NCBI GenBank assembly: GCA_963805625.1
Contig: CAWDVE010000017.1
Location: 128,001-192,000 of the forward strand
Direction: 5' to 3'
Length of the DNA stretch: 64,000 bases
Source: an uncultured Candidatus Rokubacteria bacterium
GTDB taxonomy: Bacteria > Methylomirabilota > Methylomirabilia > Rokubacteriales > DASRDR01
The notes under the pieces are model-generated. The model was not told the origin of the DNA, searched no databases, and saw nothing but the letters and a program-made list of their open reading frames with translations. How positions within the stretch are numbered: position 1 is the first letter of the stretch; each line of letters begins with the position of its first letter. The translations under genes were made by a program, and so were the position numbers. Positions 27,535 through 49,347 of this stretch are shown here, one piece after another.

Positions 27535-30500
27535 TCAGGCCGGCGCGTCGAGCGTCCGGGCGAGGGCTTCCGCGCGCTCTGCCCAGTGAGGGACGCGGAG
27601 ATCGACGAACCACTGGCGGGCGTGCTCCCAGTGCTGGGCTGCCGACGTCCTGTCACCCGTGGCGAGGGCGGCCTCCCCACGGTCCATCCACACCCGCGCC
27701 ACGTCGTAGCGCGCCTGGATCGCCTCGAACGTCGTTCCTGCTTCGTGGAGCGTCGCCATGGCCTCGGCCAGGGCGCCGGTCGCAAGCTGGACACGCCCGA
27801 GCGCCCGGAGCGCCAGGCCGACGCCGTAGGCCGAGCGGGCCGCGCGGGTGATCTCGAGCGCCTCCCGCGCGGTCGCGAGCGCCCGCTCGCGCCGGCCATC
27901 GAGGCGGTATGCGTCGGCCAGGAAGGCCGTGAACCAGCCCTGGAACTGCGGGAAGGGGAACGCGCCGTGCTGCTGAACCGCCGCCTCCAGGGCGGGCATC
28001 GCACGCGCGGCGTCGCTATGCTCGACGAACGAGAATCCGAGCCAGCCAAGTGCGACGGCGCGCGTGAGCGGGTCGGGAGCGACCGAGAGGCTCTGTTGGC
28101 AGGCCTCGATACCAGACTCGGCGTGACCGAGAGCTGTGTGGATGATGCCCGTGGCGCAGAGCGCCGAGGCCTGGAGCTGACGGTTGCCGCCTGCCTCGCC
28201 GATGATCAGGGCTCGCGTCTCGGCCTCGAGCGCGGCGCCGAGCTCTCCGAGCTGGGCATGGTTGAGCCCGACGACCCAGTGAGCCTGTCCGATCCACCAC
28301 TCGTCTCCCGTGCTCTCGAGGCATGTGAGCGACTCCAAGGCGTGCTTGATACCCTCCGCCGCCCGTCCGGACAGCGGGGCTTCCTGCGCGAGCACGTAGT
28401 GCGCCTTGCCGCGCGTTGCCGTGTCACCGCTTCGCGTGGAGTCGGCGATTGCGCGTTCGGCGCTCTCGATTGCCCGCTCGCGGTCACCGAGGAAGAGGTG
28501 CGTCCGGGCGAGCAGGAAATGGTTGTAGGCCGACATCGCGGCATCGTCCAGGCGGTCCAGCGAGGCCTTCCAGTGGAGTAGCAATCCCAAGGTTTCGCGG
28601 AACCGCCCAAGGTGGATCAGCGTCGAGGCTTTGCGGAGCACGAGGCGGAGGCGCCGGTGATCGCGCACGTTGGCGGGGAGTCGCTCAACGTGGGCGAGCG
28701 CCTCTTCCAGAAGGCCTAGCGCCTCGGTGTGCGCGTAGCCCCGCGCCGCTTTCTCCGCCATGCGCGAGAGGCACCCGACGGCGCTGTCGGCCTGATCGGT
28801 GCGGGCGTAGTGGTAGGCGAGCCGGTCGTCCGCCTCTTCGAGGCGCCCCTCGTAGAGCCGCTCGAGGGCGCGCGCGGCCGCGGCGTGCAGCGCCTGGCGC
28901 TGGGCCACCGGCAGGCTGTCGTACACGACCTCCTGCGTCAGGGCGTGCTTGAACACGTGGACGGACTCGCCGGGGCGCGTCTGCTCGTAGACGAACTCGA
29001 GGCGCGTGAGCTCGCGGAGCTGCTGCTGGATATCCCCCGGGCCCCGCCAGACGGCCTGGAGGAGCCGCAGCGGAACCTCCCGGCCGATGACGGACGCCAG
29101 CCGCAGTGTGTCCTTCACGTCCTCGGGCAGGCGGTCGATGCGTGCCCGCAATGCCTCCTCGACCGTGTCAGGCACGGCGATTCCACCGCCCGCGTCGGGC
29201 TCCTCGCTGACGGCCCGGCACAGCTCCTCGAGGAAGAAGGGGTTCCCCTCCGCCTTGCTGAGAATCGCGGGGGCCAGTGCCTCCTGCGCGGAGCCCATCA
29301 CCAGGAGCGACTCGACGATTCTCTGGCTGTCGCCCCGCGAGAGGGGCTGGAGTGCGAGCTGCGTCGCATATGACTTGTCCATCCAGGGCGGGCGGTAGCC
29401 GGGGCGGTACGTGAGGAGCGAGAGAACAGACGCGCCCGCCGCGGCCTCGATCAGCGAGGCGAGGCACTCCTCGGAGGAGCCATCGATCCACTGAAGGTCC
29501 TCGCACACGAATACGATCGGCCGCTGCCGGCTGCCCCGGAGACCCATTTGACGGAGCGCGTCCACCGTCCGAGCCCGGATGGCATCGCGGCTCAGCATGC
29601 TCAAAGGCTCGGTCCCCTCCTTCATGCCCAGGAGGTGGTGCAGGTACGGAGCCCATTCTTCCGGCTCCATTTCGAGGTCCTCCAGCCCCGCCCGAACCTT
29701 CCGCGCGATCGACGCCGGGCTGTCCCCCTCGGCAATCCGGAGGCTCCGCCGGAGGATCGCGATCACCGGCAGATAGGGAACCGCGCTCCCGTACGAGAGA
29801 CAGTGGCCCTCAACCCAGACGGCGCGCTCGCTCCGAAGGCTCCTGCGGAGCTCGAGAAGGAGCCGCGATTTCCCGATCCCGGCCTCGCCCACGATGCCCA
29901 CGACCTGCCCGTGTCCGTCGGCGGCGGCGGCGAAGCGGTCGCGCAGGAGCTCGAGCTCCCGGCTGCGGCCGGCCAGCGCGGTGAGCCGGCGGCCTGATCC
30001 GAAGCCAGCGCGCTCGACCCCGTCCAGCCGGTACACGGGGCCGTCGGCGGGGGCCGGCGCTGGGAGCGGCACCAGCGTGAATCGACGGTCGAGGAACGGC
30101 GCGGCCGTTTCCGAGACGACGGTCCGGTCGGGATCGGCCCGCAGGACGAGGCCTTCCAGCGCTTGCCAGGCACGGCGCTTGCCGTCGAGCTCGAGCCGGA
30201 TGTCCCGGCCCGCGTACCCCACCAGGAGCTGCGTGACGTGGATACCCAGCCGGATCGTGATCCACGGCGGCTCGGTCCGCCGCTCGCGCTCGACCGCCTT
30301 GCGGATCGCGACGGCCGCGTGCGCGGCCCGCCGGGTCGCATCCTCGACGGGCTCGAGGCCGAAGGTGGCCACGATGCCACTCGGGCCGAGGTCTTCCATC
30401 CGGCCGCCGAAGCTTCGCGCCTTCTCGATGAGGGCTTCGATCAGGCGGCTCGGGTACAGGCGGCCGTCGTCGGACGGCGGGCCGTCGATCACCGCGCGAA

Positions 30501-31605
30501 GCAGTGTCACGCGGCGGGGCTCCCAGCGGACGGTTGCCGCCGGCGCGTCCGCGGCCATCGGCGGCCGAGGTGGGCCCGTGGGAGCCACCACCTCGGGCGC
30601 GGCCTCCGGCGACGATCCGGGCCGAGATCCGCCCGGCCGGAGCCGGTGCTTGGTGATGCGGTACCGCAGCGTGTCGCGGGAGATCCCGAGCCGCCGGGCG
30701 GCGCGCGTCACGTTCCAGAACGTCTCGTCGAGCGCTTCGAGGAGCTGCGTCCGCTCGACCGCGCCCAGCGTGGCGTCGAGGGCGCGGCCCGGGGCGGGCG
30801 GGTCGCCCCGCTCCTCGACGAAGCTGGCGGCGGGGGGGATGTCCAGCATCGCCGCTGTCACCACCGCGCCGTCGACGAGGAGGGCCACCCGCTCCATCGT
30901 GTTCATCAGCTCCCGGACGTTTCCTGGCCACGGATGGCGGAGCAGCGCCGTGCGCGCCTCCGGCGCGAGGCTCTTGGCTGCCAGGCCATATTCGGCGCAG
31001 GCCACGCCCAGGTAGTGCTGCGCCAGCAGGACCACGTCCTCGCCCCTCTCACGGAGCGGCGGCAGCCGCAGGGTCACGACGGCGAGCCGGTGATAGAGAT
31101 CCTTGCGGAAGCGCCGGGCGTCCACCGCCGCCGCGAGATCCTCGTTGCTCGCGGTGATGATCCAGACATCGACGGGCTCGGAGCGGGTGGCGCCGAGCCG
31201 CCGGACGGCGCGGTCCTCCAGGACCTTCAGGAGCTTGGCCTGGAGGCTGTCGGGCAGGAGCGCCACCTCGTCGAGGAAGAGCGTGCCGCGGTTGGCCGCC
31301 TGGAACAGCCCGGCCTTCGGCTGGCGCGCGTCCGTGAAGGCCCCGCGCTCGAAGCCGAACAGCTCGGACTCGAGCAGGGTCTCGGGGAGGGCGGCGCAGT
31401 TGAGGGGGACGAACGGCTGCTCCGCGCGGGGCCCCTCGTCGTGAAGCATGCGTGCGAGCAGACCCTTGCCCACCCCGGTTTCCCCCTGGATGAGCAGCGG
31501 TGGCAGCCGCCCCCGATCGGAGGGGTGCTGGAGCAGCCGGGCGGCACTCTCCCGGAGCGCGATGATGCCGGGCGAGTTGCCGAGGAGCGCGGCCAGCGGG
31601 CCCAT
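27535..31605 (-). CDS. sigma54 activator fused to a degenerate cyclase-like domain, STAND ATPase and TPRs (paralog 1)
   Basis: GETGVGK, ESELFG.ERGAFTDA, LFLDEV, WPGNVREL, Fis HTH AARRLGISRDTLRYR; then GEAGIGKSRL, EDLQWID, GNPFFLEE, FKHALTQEV and helical repeats; start chosen at MGPLAALLG. Confidence 0.9.
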   Translation of the reverse strand: MGPLAALLGNSPGIIALRESAARLLQHPSDRGRLPPLLIQGETGVGKGLLARMLHDEGPRAEQPFVPLNCAALPETLLESELFGFERGAFTDARQPKAGLFQAANRGTLFLDEVALLPDSLQAKLLKVLEDRAVRRLGATRSEPVDVWIITASNEDLAAAVDARRFRKDLYHRLAVVTLRLPPLRERGEDVVLLAQHYLGVACAEYGLAAKSLAPEARTALLRHPWPGNVRELMNTMERVALLVDGAVVTAAMLDIPPAASFVEERGDPPAPGRALDATLGAVERTQLLEALDETFWNVTRAARRLGISRDTLRYRITKHRLRPGGSRPGSSPEAAPEVVAPTGPPRPPMAADAPAATVRWEPRRVTLLRAVIDGPPSDDGRLYPSRLIEALIEKARSFGGRMEDLGPSGIVATFGLEPVEDATRRAAHAAVAIRKAVERERRTEPPWITIRLGIHVTQLLVGYAGRDIRLELDGKRRAWQALEGLVLRADPDRTVVSETAAPFLDRRFTLVPLPAPAPADGPVYRLDGVERAGFGSGRRLTALAGRSRELELLRDRFAAAADGHGQVVGIVGEAGIGKSRLLLELRRSLRSERAVWVEGHCLSYGSAVPYLPVIAILRRSLRIAEGDSPASIARKVRAGLEDLEMEPEEWAPYLHHLLGMKEGTEPLSMLSRDAIRARTVDALRQMGLRGSRQRPIVFVCEDLQWIDGSSEECLASLIEAAAGASVLSLLTYRPGYRPPWMDKSYATQLALQPLSRGDSQRIVESLLVMGSAQEALAPAILSKAEGNPFFLEELCRAVSEEPDAGGGIAVPDTVEEALRARIDRLPEDVKDTLRLASVIGREVPLRLLQAVWRGPGDIQQQLRELTRLEFVYEQTRPGESVHVFKHALTQEVVYDSLPVAQRQALHAAAARALERLYEGRLEEADDRLAYHYARTDQADSAVGCLSRMAEKAARGYAHTEALGLLEEALAHVERLPANVRDHRRLRLVLRKASTLIHLGRFRETLGLLLHWKASLDRLDDAAMSAYNHFLLARTHLFLGDRERAIESAERAIADSTRSGDTATRGKAHYVLAQEAPLSGRAAEGIKHALESLTCLESTGDEWWIGQAHWVVGLNHAQLGELGAALEAETRALIIGEAGGNRQLQASALCATGIIHTALGHAESGIEACQQSLSVAPDPLTRAVALGWLGFSFVEHSDAARAMPALEAAVQQHGAFPFPQFQGWFTAFLADAYRLDGRRERALATAREALEITRAARSAYGVGLALRALGRVQLATGALAEAMATLHEAGTTFEAIQARYDVARVWMDRGEAALATGDRTSAAQHWEHARQWFVDLRVPHWAERAEALARTLDAPA

Positions 31606-31663
31606 GGGTGCCGGTATCCTACGCCCGTTCGACCGGCCGACGCACCCGGTCGGCCTTCCGCGC

Positions 31664-31694
31664 TCCCCCACCCAAATTGGGGGTTTCCCCACCG
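31664..31694 (+). promoter_or_regulatory. Candidate enhancer (UAS): two CCCCACC copies
   Basis: CCCCACC at 31666 and 31687; the same motif occurs twice at the paralogous locus. Confidence 0.45.
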
Positions 31695-31758
31695 CACCTA
31701 CCTGGATCGGCGGCCCCGCAGCCATCGCAACCTCCTGTTTTTTGGCGATCGAGCCTTG

Positions 31759-31773
31759 TGGCATTCCCGTTGC
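31759..31773 (+). promoter_or_regulatory. sigma54 -24/-12 promoter
   Basis: TGGCATTCCCGTTGC matches TGGCAC-N5-TTGC spacing; 34 bp before ATG 31808 with AGGAG RBS. Confidence 0.8.
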
Positions 31774-31807
31774 CCTGTTTCTAGGGTGCAAGCAAGGAGC
31801 CACGCAA

Positions 31808-32281
31808 ATGAGCGAAAGCAAGGTTCGCGAGGTGACGAGGTCCGAGCCGCCCATGGGGCGCGCCAACGTCCGCGTGGCGTGGTGGATGATCGGCGGGAGC
31901 ATGGCCGTCGGCGCCGTGCTGGGGCTGTGGTCCTTCGGGGGTCCGGTGGCGCCCCCGCCCGGATTCCGGGCGTTCGACGACCTGCCCCGGCGCCTGGTGC
32001 GGCTGGGCCACATCGCCGCCATCGCGCTTCCGGCGCTGAACCTGCTCTACGTTCCCTGGATGGCGCGTTCGCGCTGGGGCGGCTCCGCGCAGCGTGCGGG
32101 GTGTCGACTGCTCCTCTTCGGCACGGTGGCTCTGCCGAGTCTCCTCATGCTGGCGGCCTTCTGGAGTCCGGGGCGCTACCTGCTTCCGATCCCCGTGACG
32201 ACGCTGATCGCCGCCGTCTGGCTCCTAGCAGCCGGCCTTCCGGCGCGGGCCCGCGGCCCGCGGGAGGACGCGTTCCCATGA
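31808..32281 (+). CDS. Hypothetical 4-TM membrane protein
   Basis: Four hydrophobic segments, RRLVRLGHIA motif; stop overlaps the next ATG. Confidence 0.75.
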   Translation: MSESKVREVTRSEPPMGRANVRVAWWMIGGSMAVGAVLGLWSFGGPVAPPPGFRAFDDLPRRLVRLGHIAAIALPALNLLYVPWMARSRWGGSAQRAGCRLLLFGTVALPSLLMLAAFWSPGRYLLPIPVTTLIAAVWLLAAGLPARARGPREDAFP

Positions 32282-33663
32282 GGATCGGGTTGATGGCGAT
32301 GAGCGGCGTCCGCGTGCGCACGACCGAGCTTGCCGCGCTCGGGGTGACGCTCCCGGGCTTCGTCCGCCGTGGCCGGGTCATCGCCCAGCTGCCGAGCCTC
32401 GGGCTCCTCACCGTAGCGGGGCTCACGCCCCCGGGTCACGAGATCACCTATCTCGAGGTCGACGACCTCCAGGGCTTCGGCACCCTGCCCGAGTTCGATC
32501 TCGTGGGGATCTCGAGCTTCACCGCCCGGATCGATGCCGCCTACGCGCTCGCCGGGCGGTTCCGGGCGCAGGGCGTGCCCGTCGTGCTGGGCGGGCTCCA
32601 CGTCTCGCTCCTGCCGGACGAGGCGCTCGAGCACGCCGACGCCGTGGTCGTCGGCGGAGCCGAGGGAGCCTGGCCGCGCCTCCTGGCCGACGCCGAGCGG
32701 GGTCGGCTCGCGCGCCGCTACGGGGGGGCGCTCGATCGGGTCTTCGAGCCTGGTCGCTACGCCGTCCCGCGGTTCGACCTTCTCGGGGGCCGCCCGTACA
32801 ATCGGATCACCGTCCAGAGCTCGCGGGGCTGCCCGCGGGCGTGCGAGTTCTGCGCGGCGAGCCTCCGGATCACGTCGCGCTTCAACCAGAAGCCGGTGGA
32901 CCGCGTGATCGCCGAGATCCGCGCCGCCCGCGGATACGTCGCGGAGCCGTTCTTCGAGCTGGCGGACGACAACACGTTCCTCGACCGGCGCTGGGCGGAG
33001 GACTTTCTCCGCGCCGTGACGCCGGAGGGGATCCGCTACTTCACCGAGACTGACGTCTCCGTGGCCGACGACCCCGCGCTGTGCGACCGTCTGGCCGCGT
33101 CCGGCTGCCGGCAGCTCCTGATCGGCTTCGAGAGCCCGCGCGCGGACGACCTGGCGGGGCTCGATCCGGCAGAGTGGAAGCGCCGGCGGGCGCCGCACCT
33201 CCGGCGTGTGGTCGACACGCTCCAGTCGCGAGGGGTGAGCGTCAACGGCTGTTTCATTCTCGGGCTCGACGCCCACACGCCGGACGTCTTTGGCGAGGTT
33301 CTCGAATTCGTCCGCGGCTCGGGGCTCGCCGAGGTGCAGTACACGGTGCTGACTCCGTTCCCCGGCACCCCGCTCCACGCGCGGCTCCGCCGCGAGGGCC
33401 GGCTGCTCCAGGAGCGGTTCTGGGACCGGTGCACGCTCTTCGACGTGACGTTCACGCCGAAGCGCATGACCGTCGAGGAGCTCGAGGCCGGGCTCCGCTG
33501 GCTGTTCGAGGAGACCTACACGCGCCGGGAGACCGAGACACGGCTCCAGAGTTTCGTCGCGCAGCGCCGGGACGCGCGTCTGGGGGCCCGACGCGCCGCG
33601 GTCGAGCACCCCACAAAGCCCGCCGCACCGCTCCTCACCTCGAGTGACGGTATGGGGCCCTGA
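32278..33663 (+). CDS. B12-binding-domain radical SAM enzyme
   Basis: [24 protein letters not shown]-terminal domain; [11 protein letters not shown] CxxxCxxC; [17 protein letters not shown]. Confidence 0.9.
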
Positions 33664-33690: not shown

Positions 33691-33735
33691 TCGGCCCTCT
33701 CAAGGCCGAAACACGGGTTCGAATCCCGCAGGACG
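33691..33735 (+). pseudogene. 3' fragment of tRNA-Glu(CTC), att-like scar
   Basis: Anticodon arm CGGCC-CTCTCAA-GGCCG followed by AAAC and T-arm ACGGG-TTCGAAT-CCCG; no D-arm or 5' acceptor strand, no CCA. Confidence 0.8.
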
Positions 33736-33739
33736 AAGC

Positions 33740-34509
33740 CTTCCGCCCTCGGCAACCAGGCCACCACCATCTCACCACGGTGAGTCACGACATCGTTGAC
33801 CGCGTAGTCCGTGGACCGTGCCCATTCACCTTTGAAGACCATGCCCACGGAGCCAGTGGGCCCGGGTATCCCAGGCGGGCCCGGTGGACCCGGTGGTCCC
33901 AGAGCCCCGCTCGGGCCCGCCGGACCAGCCGGCCCCGGGATCCCCGCGGGACCAGAACGACCGACCGGCCCAGCGGCGCCCGACGGCCCCGGCGGGCCGG
34001 CCGGCCCCCTGGGCCCAGTCGGACCCTGCTTGCCCTCCACACCGATCGGACCCGGCTGCCCCGCCGGCCCCCCCGCGCCCCGCAGGACCACGGCGGCGAT
34101 CTGAGCCTAAGAGGCCTGGGCCCTGGAAGGGCTGGATGCCGGAGCCCGCCACACGCAGGAACAAGGGGCCGTCGATGCTGGGCGCACTGACCGTCGCGCC
34201 CAGGCGGAGGGCGCCAGTGCCCCCCGGTGGCTGCTGGCCCGCGGGCTCAAGGTCGACTCGTTCGACGAGCAACCCGGGCGTCCCGACCACGAGCTCCTCG
34301 GTGTGGAGCACCGTGGCGCAGGCGCCGTCCCCGCACATCTGGAATCGCAAGCTGTCGCCCGCGGAGACGCCCTGGACGAACGGCTCGCGCTCGACCAGGT
34401 AGCTGACCGGCACGCGGCCAGCGCCCACGGCCGGGGCGCCCGGCACCGTGATACTGACGGCCGTCCAGATCGCGAGGATAGTCGACGCTCGTGGCGAGAC
34501 AGGCTTCAT
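33740..34509 (-). pseudogene. Secreted collagen-like protein, disrupted
   Basis: Signal peptide and N-domain from ATG 34509; frameshift plus TAG near 34108; about 25 Gly-X-Y triplets; then [21 protein letters not shown], truncated at the tRNA fragment. Confidence 0.75.
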
Positions 34510-34579
34510 GACGGGTCTCCGTCGTTCGGGCGTGGGGGGTCGGCACCACCGAGGGAACCGGCCGGGACTCCAACGGCTG

Positions 34580-35056
34580 TCATCGATGGCCGCTGGCCTC
34601 GCGCTCACGGGCGAACCTGTCGATCATCGTTTCGATGACGTCCACCAGGTGGCGTCTGGCGTCGGACACGGGCCCGTGGAGCACGAATGTGCTCCGCCAC
34701 GCTTCGGCCCGCGAGAACTCGCCGGTCTCCACGACGATAGCCCGCCGGAGAACTGTCAGGTCGGCCACGCCGTAAAACACGGTCGGCGACGACGTGGCCA
34801 GGATGAGGAGGACCCGCAGGGCGTCCGGACAGGTCACCATGATCGGCAGTTTGGGCATACGCGTGCGCAGGGCGACCTCCACGGCGTCGCGCACCACCTC
34901 CCCCGTGATGCCGAGGTCGAGGGGAGCCACGAAGTCCCCGACGGCGACGTCGACGCACCACACGCGCTCGAGCAGAGCCTGGCGCGGTTCGTCCGCCCAG
35001 ACCGGTGCGCTACCGACGGACGCGATGAGGAGCAACGCAAGTGCGAGCCTATGCAT
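34580..35056 (-). CDS. Hypothetical secreted protein
   Basis: MHRLALALLLIASVGSAPVWA signal peptide followed by a globular-looking sequence. Confidence 0.6.
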   Translation of the reverse strand: MHRLALALLLIASVGSAPVWADEPRQALLERVWCVDVAVGDFVAPLDLGITGEVVRDAVEVALRTRMPKLPIMVTCPDALRVLLILATSSPTVFYGVADLTVLRRAIVVETGEFSRAEAWRSTFVLHGPVSDARRHLVDVIETMIDRFAREREASGHR

Positions 35057-39230: not shown

Positions 39231-39231
39231 G

Positions 39232-42200
39232 TCAGCTGACCGCGCCCCAGGCCCGGACGTGCTCCTCGACCCGCTCCACCCAACGCGGGACGCCGAGCGC
39301 GCGGAAGCGCCGGGCGGCCTCGCCGACATGCGCGGCCGTCGCGCTCGCGTCGCCGCGCGCGTGGGCGAGCATGGCCAGGTCGAACCAGGTTCGGGCGATC
39401 TCGAACTCGGCTCCCACGGCCTCGAAGGCGCCGAGCGCTTCGTGGAGATGGTCCTGAGCATCGCCGAGCGCACCCCGGGCCTGCGCGATGTGGCCGAGCG
39501 CCCGCTCCGCCCACCCGATGCCCTGCGTCGAGCCGGTGGCCCGGGCGTGCTCGAGTCCCTGGCTGGCCAGCTCGAGCGCCGTCTCGAGCCGGTGGGCCCC
39601 CCGGTGCGCCTCGGCCAGGAATGCCGAAAACCAGGCCTGGGGCGAGCGGAAGCGGAACTGGTCAAGCAATCGCAGCGCCTCTTCGAGGCGCGTCATGGCC
39701 GGAGCGAGGTCCCCGCGTTCGAGCCAGGCGAAGCCCAGCCAGCCGAGCGCCAGGGCGGTGTTGAGCGGATCCGGCGAGCGCGTCAGCGCGTCTTCGCAAC
39801 TGCGAATGCCGGCTTCCAGGTCCCCCCGGCACACATGGACTACACCGCTCGCCCAGGCGGCCGAGCTCGCGACCTGTGGGTCACCCACCTCGGTGCCGCG
39901 CGCCATGGCCTGGGCCTGCGCAGCCAGCGCTGCGTCGAACTCGCCGAGGAGCGCGTGGTTCAGCCCGACCGCCCAGTGCGCCGGGCCGATCCACCAAGAC
40001 TCCCCGGCGCGCTCGAGCAGGGCGACGGCCCGCCGGCCGTGCTCGAGGCCATCCCGCGGATGTCCCGACATAACGTCGTGCTGGGCGAGGACGTAGTGGA
40101 TCTTGCCCCGCGTCGCGTCGTCGTCGCATCGCTTGGCTTCCGCCAGGCCCACCTCCAGGTGGTGCGACGCCTGCCGCTGGTCCGCGAGGAAGAGATAGCT
40201 CCGCCCGAGCAGGAGGTGATAGGGGCCGGCCAGACGCGGATCACCAAGGCTCTCGAGGGAACCCTGATGGCGAAGCAGCAGGGAAACGATGTCCTGCAAG
40301 GCGCCCAGCGGCGTCATCGAATAGGCCTGCAGGAGAACGAGCTCGAGGCGGCGTCGATCCTGCTCTGCTGGCGGGAGCCGCTCGACATGGGTGCGGGCCT
40401 CCTCGAGAATCCGGACAGCCTCCGCGAGGGCGTGCGCGCTGACCGCCTGGTTGGCGAGGCGCGTGAGGTAGAGCACGGCCTTGGCCGCCTCATCCGTCCG
40501 GCCATAATGATGCGCGAGCCGATCGTAGACCTCTCCCAGCCGGTCGGCGTACACGGCCTCGAGCGCCCGGGCGATCGCGCCGTGGAGCACGCGGCGGCGG
40601 GCCGGCGGCAGGCTCTCGTAGGCGACGTCACGTGTCAGGCTGTGGGTGAACGCGCAGAGCGGCTCGCCACCCCCCGACTTCGCGTGGAGGAACTCTAGGC
40701 GCATGAGCTCCCGGAGGTTGGAATCCAGCTCTCCCTCCCAGACGGCGTGGAGGAGCGCGAGCGGCACTTCCTGTCCGACGACGGCCGCCGTTTGGAGCAG
40801 ACGGCGCGGCTCGTCGGGCAGGCGGTCGATCCGGGCGAGCAGCACCTCCTGGATGGTGTCGGGCACTGCGAGGCCCGGGGCGGCCTCGACGGCCCCGTCG
40901 ACCACCCGCGACAACTCCTCCAGGAAGAAAGGGTTCCCCTCCGCCTTCTCGAGGATGACCTCGGCGACCCGGTCGGACACCGCGTCGGTGCGGCGAACCG
41001 ACCGCACGACGCTCAGGCTGTCCTCCCGCGACAGCGGCGGAAGCGCGACCTGGGTGACGTACGAGCGGTCCATCCACGGCGCCCGGTAACCCGGCCGATA
41101 GGTCACAATGCACATCGCTGGCGCTCCGGCCGCGCTGTCCATCAGCGTGGTCAAGCACTCCTCCGACGTGGAGTCGATCCAGTGGAGGTCCTCGATGACG
41201 AACAGGATGGGCCGCCGACGCGCCCCCTGCAGCACCAGCTGGCGCAGCGCCTCGAAGGTCCGCGCCTTGACGGCCGAGGTCGTGAGCGCGGCGAGCGCCT
41301 CCGTGCCCTCCGAGATGCCGAACAGACGGAAGACGTACGGGACCGCCCCGGCTGGCTCGATCCCGACTTCCTGGACCCCCGTCCGGATCTTGCCGGCGAT
41401 GACGTCCTGGCTCTCACCCTCGGTGATGCGGAAGTTCGACCGGAGGATGTCGAGAATCGGAAAGTACGGGATGGCGCTGGCGTAGGACTGGCACCACCCC
41501 TCCAGGAACGTCACCCGTCGCTCGGGCTCGCCGAGCAGCCGCTCGCGAAACTCGTGGAGCAGTCGCGACTTCCCAATGCCGGCTTCGCCGAGCAGCCCGA
41601 CGACCTGACCGTGGCCTCTGAGCGCGTCCTCGAGACGGCTCCACAGGAGCCCGAGCTCGCGGGCGCGACCCACGAACATCGGGGCGCGCCGGCCGCGCCC
41701 CGAGCCCGGTCGCTCGGTCGCCACCAGCCGATGCACGGGCCCCGCCGCGCCGGCGCCGTCGACCGGGGCGAGGTCGAAGTGGCGCGCGAGGAAGGCCGCC
41801 GCGGCCTCCTCGACGAGGATCGCGCCTGGCTCGGCGAGTCCGAGGAGCGTGTCGAGCACCGTCCACGCCTCACGCTTGCCATCCAGGTCGACCTGGGCTC
41901 CGCCCCGGGAGGACCCGACGAGCACCCGCCGGACGGCGATTCCCGAGTGGACCCAAATGCCTGCTCCCTCGCCGCCGCTGGCCCGCTCCGCGGCCTTGTG
42001 CACCGCCGTCGCCGCCAGCGCGGCCCGTTGCGGGGCGTCCTCGATCGGCTCCAGCCCGAACGCCGCGACGATGCCCGTCGGGCTCATCTCCTCGATCCGT
42101 CCGCCGAACGTCTGGATCTTCTCGACCAGGGTCTCGAGCGCGCGGCTCGGACTGAACCCGGGATCGGCGTCGGCTGGCAGGACGAGCGCGCTCCGCAGGA

Positions 42201-43374
42201 ACGCGAGCCGTCGGCCCTCCCAGCGGACCGCCAGCGGTGCGATGGACTCGACCGTGGCCGCCGTCGCCCCGGGCGCTCGAGGCGCGGCTGCCTCGAGCGG
42301 GAGCGGGTCCTCGGGCGGGACGGGCTGGTCGGACCGGATCGTGCGGCTTCGCGCGGGTCGGGCCGGCTCCTCGCGCCCCAGGCCGTGCTTCACCATGCGG
42401 TACCGGAGGGTGTCCCGGGAGATCCCCAGACGCGCGGCCGCCCGCGTGACGTTGCCGCCGGTCTGACGCAGGGCCTCGACGAGATGCACCCGCTCCACGC
42501 TGCCCAGCGCCACCGCGAGTGCGGGCGACTCCGGCGCCTTTGGCTCGCCCCGGGCGTCCGTGGCCGCTGGTGCCGCCGGCACGGTGGGCAGCCCAAGGAG
42601 CTCCGCGGTCACCACCGGGGCCTCGGAGAGGAGCGCAACGCGCTCCATCACGTTTGCCAGCTCCCGCACGTTCCCGGGCCACGGATAGGCGAGGAGTGCC
42701 GCCCGGGCGTCCAGCGTGAGACTCCGCGAGGGGAGTCGATACTCCGCGCACGCCCGGCCGAGGAAGTGCTCTGCGAGGAGGAGCACGTCCTCGCCTCGGT
42801 CGCGCAGCGGTGGAATGGTCAGCGTCACCACGGCGAGGCGGTGATAGAGGTCCTCGCGGAATCGTCGCGCATGTGCCGCGCTCGCGAGGTCCTCGTTGCT
42901 GGCCGTGACGATCCAGACGTCGACGGGCTCGCTCCGGGTGCTGCCGAGCCGCCGGACGGCGCGGTCCTCGAGCGCCTTGAGGAGCTTGGCCTGGAGCGCC
43001 TCCGGCAGGAGACCCACCTCGTCCAGGAAGATCGTCCCGTGGTTGGCCGTCTGGAAGAGGCCGGCCTTCGCATGGCGCGCGTCCGTGAAGGCGCCGCGCT
43101 CGTAGCCGAAGAGCTCGGCCTCGAGCAGGGTTTCGGGAATCGCCGCGCAGTTGACGTCGACGAATTGCCCGGAGGATCGAGGCCCCGCACGGTGGAGGGC
43201 CCGCGCGAGCAACCCCTTGCCCACGCCCGTCTCGCCCTGGATCAGGACGGGCGGCAACCGGCCGCGCTCGGACTGCCGCTGGAGAAGCCGCGCCGCCGTC
43301 TCGCGGACCGCGACTATCCCCGGGCTCTCCCCGAGCAACTCGAGCAGGAGAGGCGGTGCCATGGGAGCGCCCAT
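39232..43374 (-). CDS. sigma54 activator fused to a degenerate cyclase-like domain, STAND ATPase and TPRs (paralog 2)
   Basis: GETGVGK, ELFGYERGAFTDA, IFLDEV, WPGNVREL, AAARLGISRDTLRYR; GEAGIGKSRL, EDLHWID, GNPFFLEE, helical repeats. Confidence 0.9.
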   Translation of the reverse strand: MGAPMAPPLLLELLGESPGIVAVRETAARLLQRQSERGRLPPVLIQGETGVGKGLLARALHRAGPRSSGQFVDVNCAAIPETLLEAELFGYERGAFTDARHAKAGLFQTANHGTIFLDEVGLLPEALQAKLLKALEDRAVRRLGSTRSEPVDVWIVTASNEDLASAAHARRFREDLYHRLAVVTLTIPPLRDRGEDVLLLAEHFLGRACAEYRLPSRSLTLDARAALLAYPWPGNVRELANVMERVALLSEAPVVTAELLGLPTVPAAPAATDARGEPKAPESPALAVALGSVERVHLVEALRQTGGNVTRAAARLGISRDTLRYRMVKHGLGREEPARPARSRTIRSDQPVPPEDPLPLEAAAPRAPGATAATVESIAPLAVRWEGRRLAFLRSALVLPADADPGFSPSRALETLVEKIQTFGGRIEEMSPTGIVAAFGLEPIEDAPQRAALAATAVHKAAERASGGEGAGIWVHSGIAVRRVLVGSSRGGAQVDLDGKREAWTVLDTLLGLAEPGAILVEEAAAAFLARHFDLAPVDGAGAAGPVHRLVATERPGSGRGRRAPMFVGRARELGLLWSRLEDALRGHGQVVGLLGEAGIGKSRLLHEFRERLLGEPERRVTFLEGWCQSYASAIPYFPILDILRSNFRITEGESQDVIAGKIRTGVQEVGIEPAGAVPYVFRLFGISEGTEALAALTTSAVKARTFEALRQLVLQGARRRPILFVIEDLHWIDSTSEECLTTLMDSAAGAPAMCIVTYRPGYRAPWMDRSYVTQVALPPLSREDSLSVVRSVRRTDAVSDRVAEVILEKAEGNPFFLEELSRVVDGAVEAAPGLAVPDTIQEVLLARIDRLPDEPRRLLQTAAVVGQEVPLALLHAVWEGELDSNLRELMRLEFLHAKSGGGEPLCAFTHSLTRDVAYESLPPARRRVLHGAIARALEAVYADRLGEVYDRLAHHYGRTDEAAKAVLYLTRLANQAVSAHALAEAVRILEEARTHVERLPPAEQDRRRLELVLLQAYSMTPLGALQDIVSLLLRHQGSLESLGDPRLAGPYHLLLGRSYLFLADQRQASHHLEVGLAEAKRCDDDATRGKIHYVLAQHDVMSGHPRDGLEHGRRAVALLERAGESWWIGPAHWAVGLNHALLGEFDAALAAQAQAMARGTEVGDPQVASSAAWASGVVHVCRGDLEAGIRSCEDALTRSPDPLNTALALGWLGFAWLERGDLAPAMTRLEEALRLLDQFRFRSPQAWFSAFLAEAHRGAHRLETALELASQGLEHARATGSTQGIGWAERALGHIAQARGALGDAQDHLHEALGAFEAVGAEFEIARTWFDLAMLAHARGDASATAAHVGEAARRFRALGVPRWVERVEEHVRAWGAVS

Positions 43375-43456
43375 CCTACTCCGGCCGAGCGCCCAAGCTC
43401 AACCGGTGCCCTGGCTGACCCAAGCGCGTCTCGCCCGTGACTCGAGGCGACGGATT

Positions 43457-43490
43457 TTCCCCCACCGTTGCCGTGTCCCCACCCGGTGGG
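43457..43490 (+). promoter_or_regulatory. Candidate enhancer (UAS): two CCCCACC copies
   Basis: CCCCACC at 43460 and 43477; the second copy ends 67 bp before the sigma54 box (66 bp at paralog 1). Confidence 0.45.
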
Positions 43491-43549
43491 TCACGTACCT
43501 CATCGATGGCGTGATCCGTAAGTACATGCTGTGAATCAGTTTTCATCGA

Positions 43550-43564
43550 TGGCACTGAGGTTGC
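43550..43564 (+). promoter_or_regulatory. sigma54 -24/-12 promoter
   Basis: TGGCACTGAGGTTGC, near-perfect consensus, preceded by an AT-rich patch. Confidence 0.82.
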
Positions 43565-43668
43565 CCCACCTTGGGCCAGTGGCGACGGCTCGAAGGCGTT
43601 GCCGGGGGAGGGCGGGGATGGCCGGATGCAGCGTGGTGGTCGTGGATGAGCCCGGGCTGGAGACCACC

Positions 43669-44763
43669 ATGCCGAGCATGCCCTGGGGGAGGCTCCTCCT
43701 GGGTGGGCTCGGTTTCCTGGCGCTGACAGTGGGCGCGTTCTGGTGGCTGTTCGCCCGGGTCCCGGGCGACCATGCGGCGCCGCTCCTGGGAGATCTGCGC
43801 TGGGGCTACTTCATCCTCCTGCTCCTGGCCCTGCCGGTCGAGAGCGTGACCTCGGCCGCGCGGATCTGGCTCATCTGCCGCGTGCTCCACCCGGGCGTCT
43901 CGTTCTGGGCGTGCATCCAGTCCGAGCTCGCCAACATCGGGATCTCGATCCTCACGCCATCGCAGTCGGGTGGTGGCGCAGGCCAGGTCTACATGCTCAC
44001 CCGCAGCGGGGTGAGCGTCGGCACCGGGCTCACCGCGACCCTCATCTCGTTCATGGGGACGATGGTGGGGCTTCTCCTGATGGGGCTCTACTCGCTCCTG
44101 ATCTCCGGGGTGGGGGCCAGCGGGTTCGTCTTCCTCGCCCCGGTGTGGACGCTGACGGCAATCGCCGCCGCGCTCCTCCTCGGGGCCACCTGGCCGGATC
44201 TCTGCCGCATCGCGCTGGCCGCGCTCTCGCGGACGGTCTGGCGCCTGCTGCGCCGGCCCGGGGCCGTCATCGACTGGTGGCCCCCTGGCGCGCCTCGCTC
44301 GGGTCCCGCCGTCGACCGGATGGACGCCACGATGGCCCGACTGGTGGACCTTCTCTACACCTACCGCGAGGACGCCCGGCGCTTTCTTCGCCACGGCAAG
44401 GCGTGCTTCGCGGCGGTCTGCCTGCTCAGCCTGAGCTTTCTCCTGGCGCGGGCCCTCATGCCGTATCTCTGCGCGCGCTTCCTCGGAGTCGAGGGTGGGT
44501 CCTTGCGCCAGATCGTGGAGGCGCAGATGGCCCTCATCTTCCTGGTCTTCTTCGCCCCGACCCCGGGAGGCGCGGGCATCGCCGAGGGAGCCTCGCTCTC
44601 GATCATGGCGGACATCGTGCCCCCCGGCATCGCGCCTTACTACAACCTGCTCTGGCGATTCTCGACGACCTACCTCGCCGCCCTGGCGGGGTTCCTGTGT
44701 CTCGGCCGGGCCCTCGCCCGGGATGCGTCCAGGATCACGCCCCGTCAACCCGAGCCGCGGTGA
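43669..44763 (+). CDS. Lysylphosphatidylglycerol synthase TM-domain (UPF0104, flippase-like) protein
   Basis: LTPSQSGGG, APTPGGAGIAEG and LLWRFSTTY motifs; about 8 TMs; start uncertain. Confidence 0.8.
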   Translation: MPSMPWGRLLLGGLGFLALTVGAFWWLFARVPGDHAAPLLGDLRWGYFILLLLALPVESVTSAARIWLICRVLHPGVSFWACIQSELANIGISILTPSQSGGGAGQVYMLTRSGVSVGTGLTATLISFMGTMVGLLLMGLYSLLISGVGASGFVFLAPVWTLTAIAAALLLGATWPDLCRIALAALSRTVWRLLRRPGAVIDWWPPGAPRSGPAVDRMDATMARLVDLLYTYREDARRFLRHGKACFAAVCLLSLSFLLARALMPYLCARFLGVEGGSLRQIVEAQMALIFLVFFAPTPGGAGIAEGASLSIMADIVPPGIAPYYNLLWRFSTTYLAALAGFLCLGRALARDASRITPRQPEPR

Positions 44764-44791
44764 TCCCGCGCACGAACGGAGGGCTCGAGCC

Positions 44792-45379
44792 ATGACCATC
44801 ACCGACTTCGCCGTGCACCTGGTCCTGGGTACGATCCTCATCATCGGGGCCTACCAGTTCTACTTCTGGTGCCAGCGAAACCCCCTCAGGCCGGTCCGAG
44901 AGTTCCGGCTCTCCCTCGATGACCGCATCCCCTACTGGCCCGCGTGGGTCTGGATCTACAGCTTCCTCTACTACCCGGTCATCCTCTACACGACCTGGGT
45001 GGTCGATTCGTCCCGCGAGTTCGTCTACCTCGCAGTGAGCTTCCTGGGGCTTCTCGCCATGCAGATGGCCTTCTTCCTCGTGTTCCCGGTTGCGACGCCC
45101 GAGTCCTGGCGCGCCATCAACCGCCGGCGGACGTGGTCGGAGCGGTTTCTCGCGTTCGTCCAGCGGTTCGACGCCCGGTCGAACAGCTTCCCGAGCATGC
45201 ACACCTCCGTGGCGATGCTGACGGCCCTCTACCTCCAGCCACACTTCGGCACGTGGGTCTTCGGCTTCCCGACGCTGATCGGACTTTCGTGCCTGTTCAC
45301 CAAGCAGCACTACCTGGTCGACCTGCCCGCGGGGGCCGCGCTCGGCTTGCTCGCGTATCGCTTCTTTGCCATCGCGTGA
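44792..45379 (+). CDS. PAP2-family phosphatase/phosphotransferase (Aur1/IPC-synthase-like)
   Basis: LDDRIP, NSFPSMHTS, KQHYLVDL catalytic motifs; multiple TMs. Confidence 0.85.
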   Translation: MTITDFAVHLVLGTILIIGAYQFYFWCQRNPLRPVREFRLSLDDRIPYWPAWVWIYSFLYYPVILYTTWVVDSSREFVYLAVSFLGLLAMQMAFFLVFPVATPESWRAINRRRTWSERFLAFVQRFDARSNSFPSMHTSVAMLTALYLQPHFGTWVFGFPTLIGLSCLFTKQHYLVDLPAGAALGLLAYRFFAIA

Positions 45380-45392
45380 GAAGGGCCCAGCC

Positions 45393-45899
45393 ATGACCCT
45401 GCGCGCAGGCATCGAAGGTCTGTTCGAGATGCAGGTGACCCAGCTCGCCGCGTCCCGGGAGTTCCGGGCGCTGGAGAGCGGGAGCACCCCGCCGGCCGAT
45501 TACGACCGGTTCCTCGGCGACGTCGTACGGACGCACCTCCGGGCGACGGAGTTCGTCGCTTTCCTCTGCGCGCTGGCGCCGCCCGCGACGAGCGAGAGCC
45601 GTCTGCGGAACCTCCTGGAGGAGCTTCATCACCCCGGACTCCTGCGGCAGCTGGCCGCGGGCGCGGGACTGGGCGACCGGCTGCCCGAGCTGGAGGCCCT
45701 GGCCGCCGCCGACGTCCGTCGCCTCGTCGTCGAGCCGGTGCTCTACCGGACGCTCGGCGAGGTGGGGCTCGCCGCGTTCTGCGAGGACGAGGACGGGCTG
45801 GCCATCGCCGAGCTGACCTTGCGGGAGAACGTGTTCCTCCGGCGGTACTTCCGGGACGGAACGCTCGCGGGAGTGGAGGGCACGCCGTGCGGCTCGTAA
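45393..45899 (+). CDS. Heme-oxygenase-like (TenA/PqqC/HDO) protein, apparently shortened
   Basis: All-helical; NLLEEL-HHP metal-ligand-like motif; the second His/Glu cluster appears to be missing. Confidence 0.45.
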   Translation: MTLRAGIEGLFEMQVTQLAASREFRALESGSTPPADYDRFLGDVVRTHLRATEFVAFLCALAPPATSESRLRNLLEELHHPGLLRQLAAGAGLGDRLPELEALAAADVRRLVVEPVLYRTLGEVGLAAFCEDEDGLAIAELTLRENVFLRRYFRDGTLAGVEGTPCGS

Positions 45900-47029
45900 G
45901 CGCGACGGTCTATGCCCTCAGGATCCCGTTCCTCACGTCCGTTCGCCACAGCCTCGGAAACCGGACGTGGAGCGACTCCGTGGTCGTCCGCGTCCTGGAT
46001 GCGGACGGTGTCGAGGGGTTCGGGGAGGCGGCTCCGCGGCCCTACGTCACCGGCGAGACGCCCGCCGCCGTCGTCGAGCACCTGGCGCGGGTCCTCTGGC
46101 CGGTTGTCCGCGGGGCCGCGTTGCCCGATCTCGGGAGTCCCGCGGACCTCGAGGCCATGGAGCGGCTCGTGCCCGACGGCGGGCCGGCGGCGGGGCGCCA
46201 TCACGCCGCGCGCTCGGCGCTGGAGCTGGCGCTTGTCGACCGGGCGCTCCGGTACCGGGGCGCCTCGGCGGCGACCCTCCTTCCGCCGCTCCGCAGCCAG
46301 GTCGTCTACGGAGGGGCGATCACCGCGGAGTCGCCCGATCGCGCGGCCCGGCAGGCGCGCTGGGCGCGGCTGGCCGGCCTCCGACAGGTGAAGGTCAAGG
46401 TCGGGGTGGGCGACGACGGCGCCCGCGTCGACGCGGTGCGGGACGTTCTGGGTCCCGACGTGACGATCAGAGCGGACGCCAACGGTGCCTGGACGCCCGT
46501 CGAGGCCCGGGCCGCGGTGATTCGACTCGCCCGGTGCGGAGTCGCCAGCGTGGAGCAGCCGATTCCACCCGGCTCCCCCTGGATCCTGGCCCGCCTCCGG
46601 GCGGAGTGCCCGCTTCCCCTGGTGGCGGACGAGTCCCTCGTGACCCCGGCCGATCTGGAGGCCCTCATCGCGGCGGGCGCGGTGGACGCCGTCAACGTGC
46701 GCGTCTCGAAGTGCGGTGGCTTCGCGCGATCCGTGGCGATGGCCCGCCGCGCGGCGGCGGCCGGCCTTGAGGTCCAGGTGGGAAGCCACGTGGGTGAGAC
46801 GGCCGTCCTCGCGGCGGCTGGCCGCCACCTCGCCGCCGGGCTTGAGACCCCGGTCTTCGTGGAAGGGTCGTACGGTACGCTCCTGCTCGTCGAGGACGTG
46901 TCGGACGACGGTCTACGATTCGGCCACCGTGGCGAGGCGCCGCTCTTGACCGGACCGGGCTGGGGCGTCCGCGTGCGAGTGGACCGGCTTCGCCGACACG
47001 CCCAAGCGGTTGTCGAGCTGGCGGCGTAG
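45887..47029 (+). CDS. Enolase superfamily enzyme (MLE / dipeptide epimerase subgroup)
   Basis: GFGEAAPRPYVTGET, KVKVG, DANG, EQP, ADES, SKCGG. Confidence 0.88.
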   Translation: MRLVSATVYALRIPFLTSVRHSLGNRTWSDSVVVRVLDADGVEGFGEAAPRPYVTGETPAAVVEHLARVLWPVVRGAALPDLGSPADLEAMERLVPDGGPAAGRHHAARSALELALVDRALRYRGASAATLLPPLRSQVVYGGAITAESPDRAARQARWARLAGLRQVKVKVGVGDDGARVDAVRDVLGPDVTIRADANGAWTPVEARAAVIRLARCGVASVEQPIPPGSPWILARLRAECPLPLVADESLVTPADLEALIAAGAVDAVNVRVSKCGGFARSVAMARRAAAAGLEVQVGSHVGETAVLAAAGRHLAAGLETPVFVEGSYGTLLLVEDVSDDGLRFGHRGEAPLLTGPGWGVRVRVDRLRRHAQAVVELAA

Positions 47030-47041
47030 GGCGAGGTCCGG

Positions 47042-47691
47042 ATGGGCACCTTGCTCAGGGCCGGGCTTCGACTCCGGGAGTGGAGGCACGACGTCCGCTT
47101 CGAGCGGGCCACGGCGGGGCCCGCTCGCGCGCAGGCGACGGCGCTCCAGGCGCTTCTCCAGCGGAATGCCCGGACGGCCTTCGGCCGGGAGCAAACCTTC
47201 GTCGAGGTCCGCGGGTATCACCGCCGGACACCCCTGGTCGCCTTCGTCCGAAAGGGCCGGGACACGACGAGCATCACCGGGGAGAAGCTCCACCTCAATC
47301 ACGTCCGGGCCGCGGTTCGAGCGGCCGAGGACGCGACGCAGGTCGAGGTCTGGCAGTTCCGCCTGATTCCCGACGTCGAGACCTGTCGCTAAGACCTGCT
47401 CGTCGAGCCGCGCGGGGCCGGCCTCGACGCGCTCGGGGCCGAGGCATTCGCGCGGTCGGTCGACGAGGCGCTCGGCCGGACAACGTGGAGTACGCGGCGA
47501 AGCGACGCTCCCGCCGGCTCGGGCCTCCGCGCCTCTGCGTCATGCGGGCGGGGTGGGCCGAGCGACAGTGCCAGGCCGAATTCGCCCGGGGCCGGCGGGA
47601 AGTGCAGCACAAGTGGCCGGCGATCCAGCCCGCGTGGGATCGCGAGAGCCGCGGCGAGGTCGTCCGAATCTGGGGGGAGGGAGCCGCGTGA
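47042..47691 (+). pseudogene. GH3-family acyl-adenylate/amide synthetase, internally deleted and interrupted
   Basis: N-term Q..LL.RNA.TAFGR joined directly to C-term TPLVAFVRKG..SITGEKL; TAA at 47390-47392; frameshift before NVEYAAKR.S.RL; C-terminal QHKWP. Confidence 0.75.
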
Positions 47692-48369
47692 CGAGAGAGA
47701 CAGCCCGGCGGGCGGGTCAAGCGCTCCTCTGGTGGGGTGTCGTCGGCGGGCCGATTCTCGCGTGGTGGCCCGGGGCGCTGCGGCTGCCCGCGCTCTGGGC
47801 GGTCGTCGTCCTCGGCGTGCTGGCGAACGCGCTCCAGCCGTCCTACCGATTCCGGGACACCGCCCGGTCACCGGAGGATGGCGGCACATTCCGTCAGATC
47901 ATGCTCACCGTCTATGGGAGCCAGGCGGCCGCACTCGTCGAGCTCGTCCTCCGCCGGCCCGCGGGGCTGCCCTTCGACGCGCTGGGCATGGGCGCCCTCC
48001 TGGCGATGGGCGCGGGCCTCGCCCTCCGGACGTGGGCGATCGCCACGCTCGGCGGCTGGTTCACGCTGCGCGTGGCCATGGAACCCGCGCAGCGCCTGGT
48101 TGACGAGGGGCCGTACCGCCTGATGCGCCATCCGAGCTACGCGGGAGCATTCCTCGCCTTCGTCGCGAGTGCGGTCCTGCTGCGCGCGTGGGTGGCGACG
48201 GCCCTGGGCGCGGTGGCCCTCTACTTGGCCTTCCGGCGCCGGATCCACCACGAGGAGCGAGTGCTGGCGGCGGGCCTGCCTGGCTACCGGGCCTACATGA
48301 CGCGGACGGGTGCGCTTTTGCCGCGTCTCGGACCCTGGTCCGCCCGGCGGGCGCCGGCCACCGAGCGGG

Positions 48370-49347
<978 letters not shown>

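Follow-up and report, generated by a model that had tools for sequence, protein, structure and literature searches.

The 64,000 bp stretch analysed here (the window) lies on contig CAWDVE010000017.1 (128,001 bp–192,000 bp, forward strand) of an uncultured Candidatus Rokubacteria bacterium (assembly GCA_963805625.1) and encodes two large paralogous proteins, whose genes we have designated gene A (P0001) and gene B (P0002). The gene A product joins a bacterial enhancer-binding protein (bEBP) motor, composed of an AAA+ ATPase and a Fis-type helix-turn-helix (HTH) domain, to a degenerate class III cyclase fold (the pseudocyclase) and to a STAND (a signal transduction ATPase that has numerous domains) followed by tetratricopeptide repeats (TPRs). 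We read it as a sigma-54 activator that is gated by its STAND-TPR half and give this reading a probability of about 0.8, counting together two ways in which the gating may work, clustering of the motors and release from repression. What is new is the joining of known kinds of bEBP and STAND, in which the motor and pseudocyclase are of single origin and the STAND-TPR half is of multiple origin.

Domain organisation of the gene A and gene B proteins

The two proteins were 53% identical along their whole length and had the same Pfam order, which in the gene A protein was Sigma54_activat (residues 35–179), an AAA lid, HTH_8 (280–319), AAA_16 (544–722) and TPRs. A sequence-only reading of the window had described two open reading frames (ORFs) with this common layout and had proposed that no receiver (REC), GAF or PAS domain precedes the motor; both statements held. 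The AAA+ model started within 29 residues of the N-terminus in all 76 full-length proteins among the best 150 cluster representatives, and the stretch upstream of gene A was non-coding-like. A longer start of gene A, at an in-frame ATG at 31725, 40 codons upstream, was ruled out with six orthologues, as the variable columns showed no codon-position bias in the 40-codon upstream stretch (24/20/24 at the three positions) compared to the coding start (10/7/30). This upstream ATG is conserved (31606-31725, minus strand) and a Shine-Dalgarno-like run there coincides with the IHF-like site of the divergent promoter, which explains why some database gene calls, at 1391–1397 aa, are about 40 aa too long. 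One family member (L061) had a 2325-codon open frame with approximately 930 codons ahead of the AAA+ domain; a merged gene or a fusion at the N-terminus may account for this.

The gene A protein matched PF00158 with 198 bits (cut-off 20.2), and the Walker A, GAFTDA, Walker B, arginine finger and sensor II motifs of its AAA+ domain were all intact. Among 61 family proteins with less than 80% identity to each other, Walker A, Walker B, the switch Asn, the arginine fingers and sensor II were retained in 58–61 proteins per position. The GAFTDA loop was present in 60 of the 61 proteins and in 94 of 106 members found in genomes; four of the latter had GAFTGA and the remainder were frameshifted or cut. 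GAFTDA is also found in Desulfovibrio vulgaris DVU2106 (PMC4641369), FlgR is listed with an Asp at the same loop position (PMC3162934), and NorR G266D, as described in PMC2941729, forms open complexes, escapes repression by its GAF domain and is active in vivo and in vitro, with an ATPase that is weaker and less cooperative. GAFTDA is a working variant of the loop, neither a defect nor an oddity. By every feature that could be tested in the sequence the gene A product belongs to the bEBP family, and the genome encodes sigma-54 and three HU/IHF-family genes.

The segment after the HTH had been described as resembling class III cyclases without their metal aspartates, with RRVTLLRAV in place of VLFAD and LGPSGIVATFG in place of GDG. 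These motifs were present, and alignment of the pseudocyclase with the intact cyclase domains of the same genome gave an HHalign probability of 98.8% over 169 columns; the profile also matched CyaB (E 0.002). A structure model of residues 358–935, built from 99 sequences, had a pLDDT of 89.4 and a pTM of 0.87, and its first 176 residues matched CyaB (Z 21.3, rmsd 3.0, 171 aligned) and other class III cyclases too. A phmmer search of the PDB with the cyclase-like segment alone returned no match, and a single-sequence fold of this segment was set aside (pLDDT 46.8). The metal aspartates were replaced by Val372 and Ser409, the Asn/His by Ala479 and the Arg by Leu483. The transition-state Asn or Arg was found in none of the 106 genome members, and the Arg in none of the 150 representatives. 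From the residues listed, 103 of the 106 genome members had a metal Asp at neither column; among the 150 representatives an Asp stood at the first metal column in 19, where the column is placed to within 1–2 residues, and at the second in three. The domain is thus predicted, from alignment and model, to have a cyclase fold and to be catalytically inactive. It is under purifying selection, with a dN/dS of 0.07–0.21 in four orthologue groups; every domain fell within 0.07–0.28 (AAA+ 0.07–0.25, TPR 0.17–0.28). Stand-alone adenylate/guanylate cyclase genes were seen directly upstream of four members, or in their predicted target operon (L053, L056, L114 and L126).

A second Walker A (GEAGIGKS) followed by TPRs had also been noted, and this half proved to be a STAND ATPase, with an AAA_16 match, a nucleotide-binding oligomerisation domain (NOD) fold and conserved motifs. 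The motifs of this class are Walker A, Walker B, GxP and the His of the winged-helix domain (WHD). In the 61 proteins the Walker A Lys was invariant, the Walker B Glu was found in 60, the Asp in 57 and the WHD His in 59. The NOD part of the model matched the NODs of nucleotide-binding leucine-rich repeat receptors (NLRs), Apaf-1 (E 1.6e-12), CED-4, an archaeal STAND and MalT; plant NLRs and 6mfv were among the matches, WRR4A aligned over 303 residues (Z 17.5, rmsd 3.7) and MalT (8bob) had a Z of 12.8. The model was closer to oligomeric than to closed NLR structures, although a predicted conformer is uninformative on the state of the protein. The TPR region matched the TPRs of LGN/Pins. By every feature testable in sequence and model the gene A product belongs to the STAND class. 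Among the shorter proteins (41 matches) no conserved STAND-less form was seen, those inspected being fragments or frameshifted tails; six of 11 short genomic members continued in another frame and five had no continuation, and natural truncation among the short genomic members is conceivable.

Comparison of the two proteins domain by domain showed identities of 75% for AAA+, 73% for HTH, 47% for the pseudocyclase, 56% for the nucleotide-binding domain (NBD), 51% for the helical domain and WHD together (HD1-WHD) and 45% for the TPRs. The claim that the AAA+ and HTH regions of the paralogues are closely similar therefore stood, whereas the accompanying claim of specially divergent TPRs did not, as their 45% lies beside 47–56% in the neighbouring domains. 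As the TPRs differ scarcely more than the other C-terminal domains do, and are closest to each other within the genome, the suggestion that A and B sense different ligands is unsupported, though possible.

Divergent sigma-54 promoters and predicted targets

Exact TGGCA-N6-TTGC sites occurred three times in the window against 0.18 expected. Two of the three were on the opposite strand, 153 and 176 nucleotides upstream of genes A and B. The surroundings of the family genes were surveyed using the best 100 of about 150 matches, which covered most of the query, together with the six copies of the source genome; nine were dropped (seven without an in-frame Walker A, one on a short contig and one with a long upstream ORF), which left 97. 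Half of these (50/97) had a strict divergent -24/-12 site within 450 nucleotides upstream, 49 of them at 105–256 nucleotides, compared to 0.7% of random windows, and seven had a strict site on the same strand as the gene. When clustered at 65% identity, 21 of 50 clusters had the divergent site, and in one further cluster (3/89 genes) the promoter was downstream of the gene instead.

Upstream of these promoters the representatives shared an integration host factor (IHF)-like site, scored against the IHF consensus. When up to two mismatches were allowed, 12 of 21 representatives had it 29–32 nucleotides ahead of the -24 element, and a single one had it at any other offset between 20 and 44. This fixed-offset count was used and a best-site count (17/21) was dropped, as ties favoured offset 30. 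A shared 17-bp palindrome (TG-N13-CA with an A/T centre) was mostly found 77–103 nucleotides upstream. Its information content was 11.3 bits, against 7.0–7.6 bits in four shuffles run with fewer iterations, and it occurred near the start in 12 of 28 held-out clusters and in none of 28 control windows. The element TANNNT was found near the gene start in 36 of 49 clusters and in two of 49 control windows. From the arrangement of divergent -24/-12 element, IHF-like site and palindrome, the family proteins are very likely to be real sigma-54 activators. A DNA specificity common to A and B, as had been suggested, agreed with the 86% identity of their recognition-helix regions and with the shared palindrome, though the site of gene A scored 3.0 bits. 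In the RNA runs 6–7% of words were present, as fragments from relatives.

The predicted targets (Table 1) varied among clusters. The commonest, upstream of 29 of 98 genes and in 14 of 50 clusters, was a small helical protein that belongs to no Pfam family and carries a predicted signal peptide. Proteins of this type are about 160–190 aa and TPR-like (for example at L004:6567-7555, L055:5073-5618, G000:C17 near 469190 and G000:C10 near 1998980), and they are also found behind a GAF-type bEBP that has its own sigma-54 promoter. The predicted products of the operon behind the gene B promoter were a flippase-like/LPG-synthase membrane protein, a PAP2 protein, a haem-oxygenase-like protein, an enolase-family enzyme, a GH3-like fragment and an isoprenylcysteine-methyltransferase-like protein; we infer that this operon serves lipid or envelope modification. 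Two of its genes may be frameshifted or decayed, namely 45393-45899, which encodes 168 aa compared to 233–235 aa in relatives, and 47042-47392, which encodes a 116-aa GH3-like piece.

Table 1. Genes A and B, their domains, and the promoter elements and predicted targets beside them (positions within the window)
Feature	Position	Strand	Remarks
Gene A (P0001)	27535..31605	-	1356-aa ORF, AAA+-HTH-pseudocyclase-STAND-TPR
bEBP AAA+ domain of gene A (aa 8-255)	30841..31584	-	Walker A 31462-31485, GAFTDA 31327-31344
Fis-type HTH of gene A (aa 280-320)	30646..30768	-	PF02954, E 2.7e-12
HTH-pseudocyclase linker of gene A (aa 321-357)	30535..30645	-	Pro/Ala-rich, unconserved; 8% identity between A and B
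Class III cyclase-fold domain of gene A (aa 358-535)	30001..30534	-	without metal aspartates, catalytic Asn and Arg
STAND NOD of gene A, NBD-HD1-WHD (aa 543-930)	28816..29979	-	Walker A 29863-29889; conserved Walker B, GxP and WHD His
Arm and TPR sensor region of gene A (aa 931-1356)	27538..28815	-	TPR families
Sigma-70-type -10-like hexamer, predicted own promoter of gene A	31616..31621	-	11 nt before start
Candidate enhancer of gene A	31665..31692	+	three upstream activating sequence (UAS)-like half-sites; conserved in 6/6 aligned orthologues
IHF-like site of gene A	31728..31740	+	1 mismatch to the consensus; 31 nt before -24 element
Sigma-54 -24/-12 promoter, divergent from gene A	31759..31773	+	kept in 5/6 orthologues
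Predicted target operon of A	31808..33663	+	two genes
Target of A: 157-aa membrane protein	31808-32281	+	no family
Target of A: B12-binding radical SAM enzyme	32278-33663	+	predicted
Gene B (P0002), paralogue with the layout of gene A	39232..43374	-	1380-aa ORF
UAS-like 17-bp palindrome of gene B	43448..43464	+	12.8 bits; 102 nt before -24 element
IHF-like site of gene B	43519-43531	+	3 mismatches to the consensus
Sigma-54 -24/-12 promoter, divergent from gene B	43550..43564	+	kept in 7/7 orthologues
Predicted target operon of B	43618..48419	+	products as listed in the text

A second -24/-12-like element (31788-31802, minus strand) points at gene A; it overlaps the target gene's ribosome site. 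It was found in five of six orthologues, including one with a decayed forward promoter, and could reflect positive autoregulation or be a by-product of the ribosome site. The third exact sigma-54 consensus of the window (54875-54889) lies ahead of a putative hydro-lyase gene and the genes following it; it had no high-scoring family palindrome, and thus probably belongs to another activator or to chance. Elsewhere in the genome an orphan sigma-54 promoter (G000:C10:2107403, minus strand) with an IHF-like site and a 12.3-bit family palindrome lies about 19 kb from the nearest family gene and upstream of predicted lipoprotein genes, which makes it a candidate target in trans.

A 37-nucleotide piece (33692-33728) had 97% identity to the 3′ part of tRNA-Glu genes at other places in the genome, whereas the window had no complete tRNA. 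The piece may lie at a border of DNA inserted between the two regulator modules. The collagen-like and unidentified ORFs at 33800-38300 mostly had no match in the loci of 13 relatives compared. A GNAT acetyltransferase gene (38697-39239) overlaps the stop of gene B and is probably co-transcribed with it.

Origins of the two halves and distribution of the family

In a tree with 32 further bEBPs from the genome, the AAA+ domains of 19 members formed one clade (support 99), whose sister was a REC bEBP of similar loop and HTH. The pseudocyclases also formed a single clade; as members had been collected with that domain, this tree is partly circular and the AAA+ tree serves as the independent check. 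The STAND modules were polyphyletic and interleaved with those of the genome's intact cyclase-STAND-TPR proteins, with at least five forced changes in a quick tree (43 rows) and at least three in a careful tree (20 rows). Monophyly of the STAND modules was rejected by the approximately unbiased test (p-AU 1.3e-60, 20 rows, which were picked after the first tree and the domain comparison).

The domains of 50 cluster representatives were also compared to those of six paralogues and 17 intact receptors of the source genome. The cyclase domain was nearer to an intact receptor than to a paralogue in none of the 50, compared to 12 for the NBD, 17 for HD1-WHD and 17 for the TPRs; two of those flagged (L108 and L126) were flagged only through their broken tails. 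The NBD of L073, for example, had 69% identity to an intact receptor and 41% to a paralogue. The AAA+-HTH-pseudocyclase cassette has a single origin, probably in a response-regulator bEBP whose receiver was lost. By these comparisons it appears to have recombined with several STAND-TPR lineages, such that sensors appear swappable with cyclase-type receptors. Genes A and B carry the same sensor lineage. Two zinc-ribbon-cyclase-STAND-TPR proteins with intact cyclase residues (L005 and G000:C22:20280-23873) have STAND halves that group with family members and are possible donors or recipients of such exchanges.

The source genome has six copies of the family, one with a frameshifted tail. Nearly all labelled homologues were from Methylomirabilota/Rokubacteria, with a few metagenome bins labelled otherwise. 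The pseudocyclase-domain profile matched 98 of 170 genomes of the phylum, these being 14/14 and 82/108 in the two large families of the order, 1/11 in one other family and 0/36 in the rest; 328 clusters at 50% identity scored E 1e-30 or better. The family is expanded in Rokubacteriales, and, as kin are not independent, the genome and cluster counts show its range only. Databases already annotate it automatically as sigma-54 regulators with TPRs. In the ESM Atlas a second cluster, mostly of Acidobacteriota, carries the same three Pfam families, and the fusion of STAND and bEBP as such is thus probably wider than Rokubacteriales.

Gating of the motor and comparison with known systems

STAND proteins are described as closed ADP-bound monomers at rest that multimerise once their repeat sensor binds an inducer, with effectors found at either end (PMC4381067), whereas a hexameric ring is required of bEBPs, whose control often acts on the oligomeric state (PMC2941729). 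By analogy with these, the STAND-TPR half may be a ligand-gated switch whose oligomerisation clusters the motors into a ring and so switches them on, a proposal that the sequence-only reading had also put forward and that we consider to have an even chance of being right. The resting protein would, as in MalT and NLRs, be an ADP-bound monomer or dimer on the enhancer, and as the enhancer overlaps the gene's own promoter it would probably be autorepressing. An inducer would bind the TPRs, and the NOD would open, take up ATP and multimerise. The pseudocyclase, inherited with the motor, would probably relay the signal as a dimerisation or adaptor module, a role modelled on the dimerisation expected of an active cyclase domain in the parent receptors, and the STAND oligomer would cluster the tethered motors into a ring. 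With IHF bending the DNA, the AAA+ ring would remodel sigma-54 and the adjacent divergent promoter would open.

Exchange of the entire STAND-TPR half leaves the coupling in place, and this speaks for a generic mechanism, for example oligomerisation. The tolerance of unrelated sensor halves, the unconserved linker and the weak-motor loop lean to clustering; the weaker, less cooperative ATPase of the GAFTDA-type NorR G266D fits a motor that gains from being clustered from outside. Co-inheritance of pseudocyclase and motor fits either clustering or release from repression.

Several points weigh on the other side. The enhancer element of gene A scored poorly against the family 17-mer and consists of half-sites, and 47 of the 97 family genes lacked a strict divergent promoter. 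The second acid of the STAND Walker B was Asn in about a dozen of 106 members (among them L001, which is paralogue C, and L048, L051, L055, L069, L082, L104, L111, L117 and L122), which may slow hydrolysis. Inheritance of the pseudocyclase with the motor, and not with the STAND, might just as well reflect a specific contact that inhibits the AAA+ domain. Control by repression is found in many bEBPs, and PspF, which shares the AAA+-HTH core, works by itself and is held in check in trans (PMC3128695, PMC2941729). A STAND oligomer does not have to have six-fold symmetry, the multimers of MalT being polydisperse (PMC4381067).

Release from repression is the main rival of clustering. It holds that the AAA+-HTH core, like PspF or NorR without its GAF domain, is competent alone, and that the pseudocyclase together with the closed STAND keeps it switched off, for instance in an inactive dimer, until an inducer frees it and the AAA+ domains build the ring on enhancer DNA. 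Negative control through the oligomeric state is common in bEBPs, with PspF, which has no sensor of its own, as a case (PMC2941729, PMC3128695), and the pseudocyclase travels with the AAA+ domain and is as constrained as that domain among orthologues. However, the linker joining HTH to pseudocyclase lacks conservation, STAND-TPR halves of very different kinds are tolerated, and GAFTDA is the exact change that escapes loop-targeted repression in NorR. We consider this account unlikely, if still a serious contender.

Sensing of a nucleotide or metabolite, in which the pocket of the pseudocyclase, or else the STAND site, detects ATP/ADP or a cyclic nucleotide and sets the activity, the TPRs being a scaffold that needs no inducer, is improbable. 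A cyclase-like ATP-binding protein exists in the PDB (6yii, by its title) and cyclase genes adjoin four sampled members, but none of the four catalytic positions is kept, small or hydrophobic residues mostly standing in their place, and this speaks against nucleotide binding in the pseudocyclase; moreover, the TPRs are under purifying selection and exchanged as whole units. It is just as improbable that the activator is constitutive or controlled by abundance, its output being set by autoregulation or a partner in trans and its C-terminal 1000 residues being a passenger or localisation module. The palindrome does overlap the gene's own promoter region, no ligand is known and several copies have broken tails; against this, the STAND motifs are near-invariant, dN/dS is below 0.3 in all domains and the fusion is kept across 98 genomes. 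That the protein is no sigma-54 activator, being a repressor or a sigma-70 regulator that retains the fold as TyrR does, is very improbable, for although the loop departs from canonical GAFTGA and half of the members lack a strict adjacent promoter, GAFTDA is reported in validated activators and mutants (PMC3162934, PMC4641369, PMC2941729) and the -24/-12 element, IHF-like site and palindrome follow the arrangement of sigma-54 promoters.

A wider proposal, which we hold tentatively and at somewhat less than even odds, is that Rokubacteriales have a lineage-wide modular toolkit for one-component signalling, in which an active cyclase and a sigma-54 motor can interchangeably receive NLR-like STAND-TPR sensors; the dead cyclase would be the universal adaptor, and a resistosome-like ATP switch would assemble a second ATPase ring to open promoters. 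If the favoured reading of the gene A protein is right, sigma-54 motors would be switched in a way not covered by the classes whose descriptions we found, namely control by a receiver, GAF/PAS, PTS or trans-acting partner, with one ATPase switch gating another ATPase ring. It would also provide a simple transcriptional read-out for a large, unstudied class of cyclase-STAND-TPR receptors; given the natural chimeras, a sigma-54 reporter would allow the ligand of any such sensor to be sought. The predicted regulon supplies a promoter, IHF-like site and operator for an abundant uncultured lineage, and the pseudocyclase is a case of a dead cyclase maintained by selection.

A full-text literature search, with most subscription journals and supplements outside its reach, found no paper on this architecture. 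The layout had been called inverted by the sequence-only reading, which is apt from the bEBP side; from the STAND side an N-terminal effector is ordinary (PMC4381067). In its N-terminal part the gene A protein resembles PspF, as it begins directly with AAA+ followed by a Fis-type HTH, and its score against TIGR02974 (PspF) was 234 bits, below the cut-off of 443.55. The pspF gene, too, is divergent from its target. Class Ic bEBPs, of the PspF type, are defined as AAA+ and HTH without a sensor (PMC3162934), and PspF stops after the HTH and is repressed by PspA in trans (PMC3128695), whereas the gene A protein has 1030 further residues. C-terminal control of the AAA+ domain is known in class II bEBPs such as LevR and CelR (PMC3162934). 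LevR differs in having an N-terminal HTH and PTS-phosphorylated domains, whereas gene A has the HTH after AAA+ and control by STAND-TPR, and no PRD or EII family was matched in its protein by Pfam. NorR G266D, DVU2106 and FlgR also carry an Asp within the GAFTGA loop, a variant that is reported to work (PMC2941729, PMC4641369, PMC3162934), but have N-terminal sensors or no HTH, and none has a STAND.

On the sensor side, MalT has the same order of NBD-HD1-WHD, arm and TPR-type sensor governing a transcriptional output (PMC4381067). The cyclase-STAND-TPR receptors (Guanylate_cyc, AAA_16 and TPR), of which the source genome has about 20 and for which PMC7159879 mentions the clade name SWACOS in passing, have a cyclase fold directly before the same type of STAND and TPRs. 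They differ in keeping both aspartates and the arginine and in having zinc-ribbon, kinase or other N-termini, whereas gene A combines a degenerate cyclase with a bEBP as output. TIGR03903 (TOMM kinase/cyclase fusion) matched residues 385–990 of the gene A protein (E 1e-79), but its whole-protein score of 268.8 bits was below the cut-off of 705.75 and there was no kinase domain. Judged by sequence, the gene A product is not an active class III cyclase, PspF, LevR or a TIGR03903 protein, and its layout lies outside the bEBP classes set out in the relevant passages of PMC3162934.

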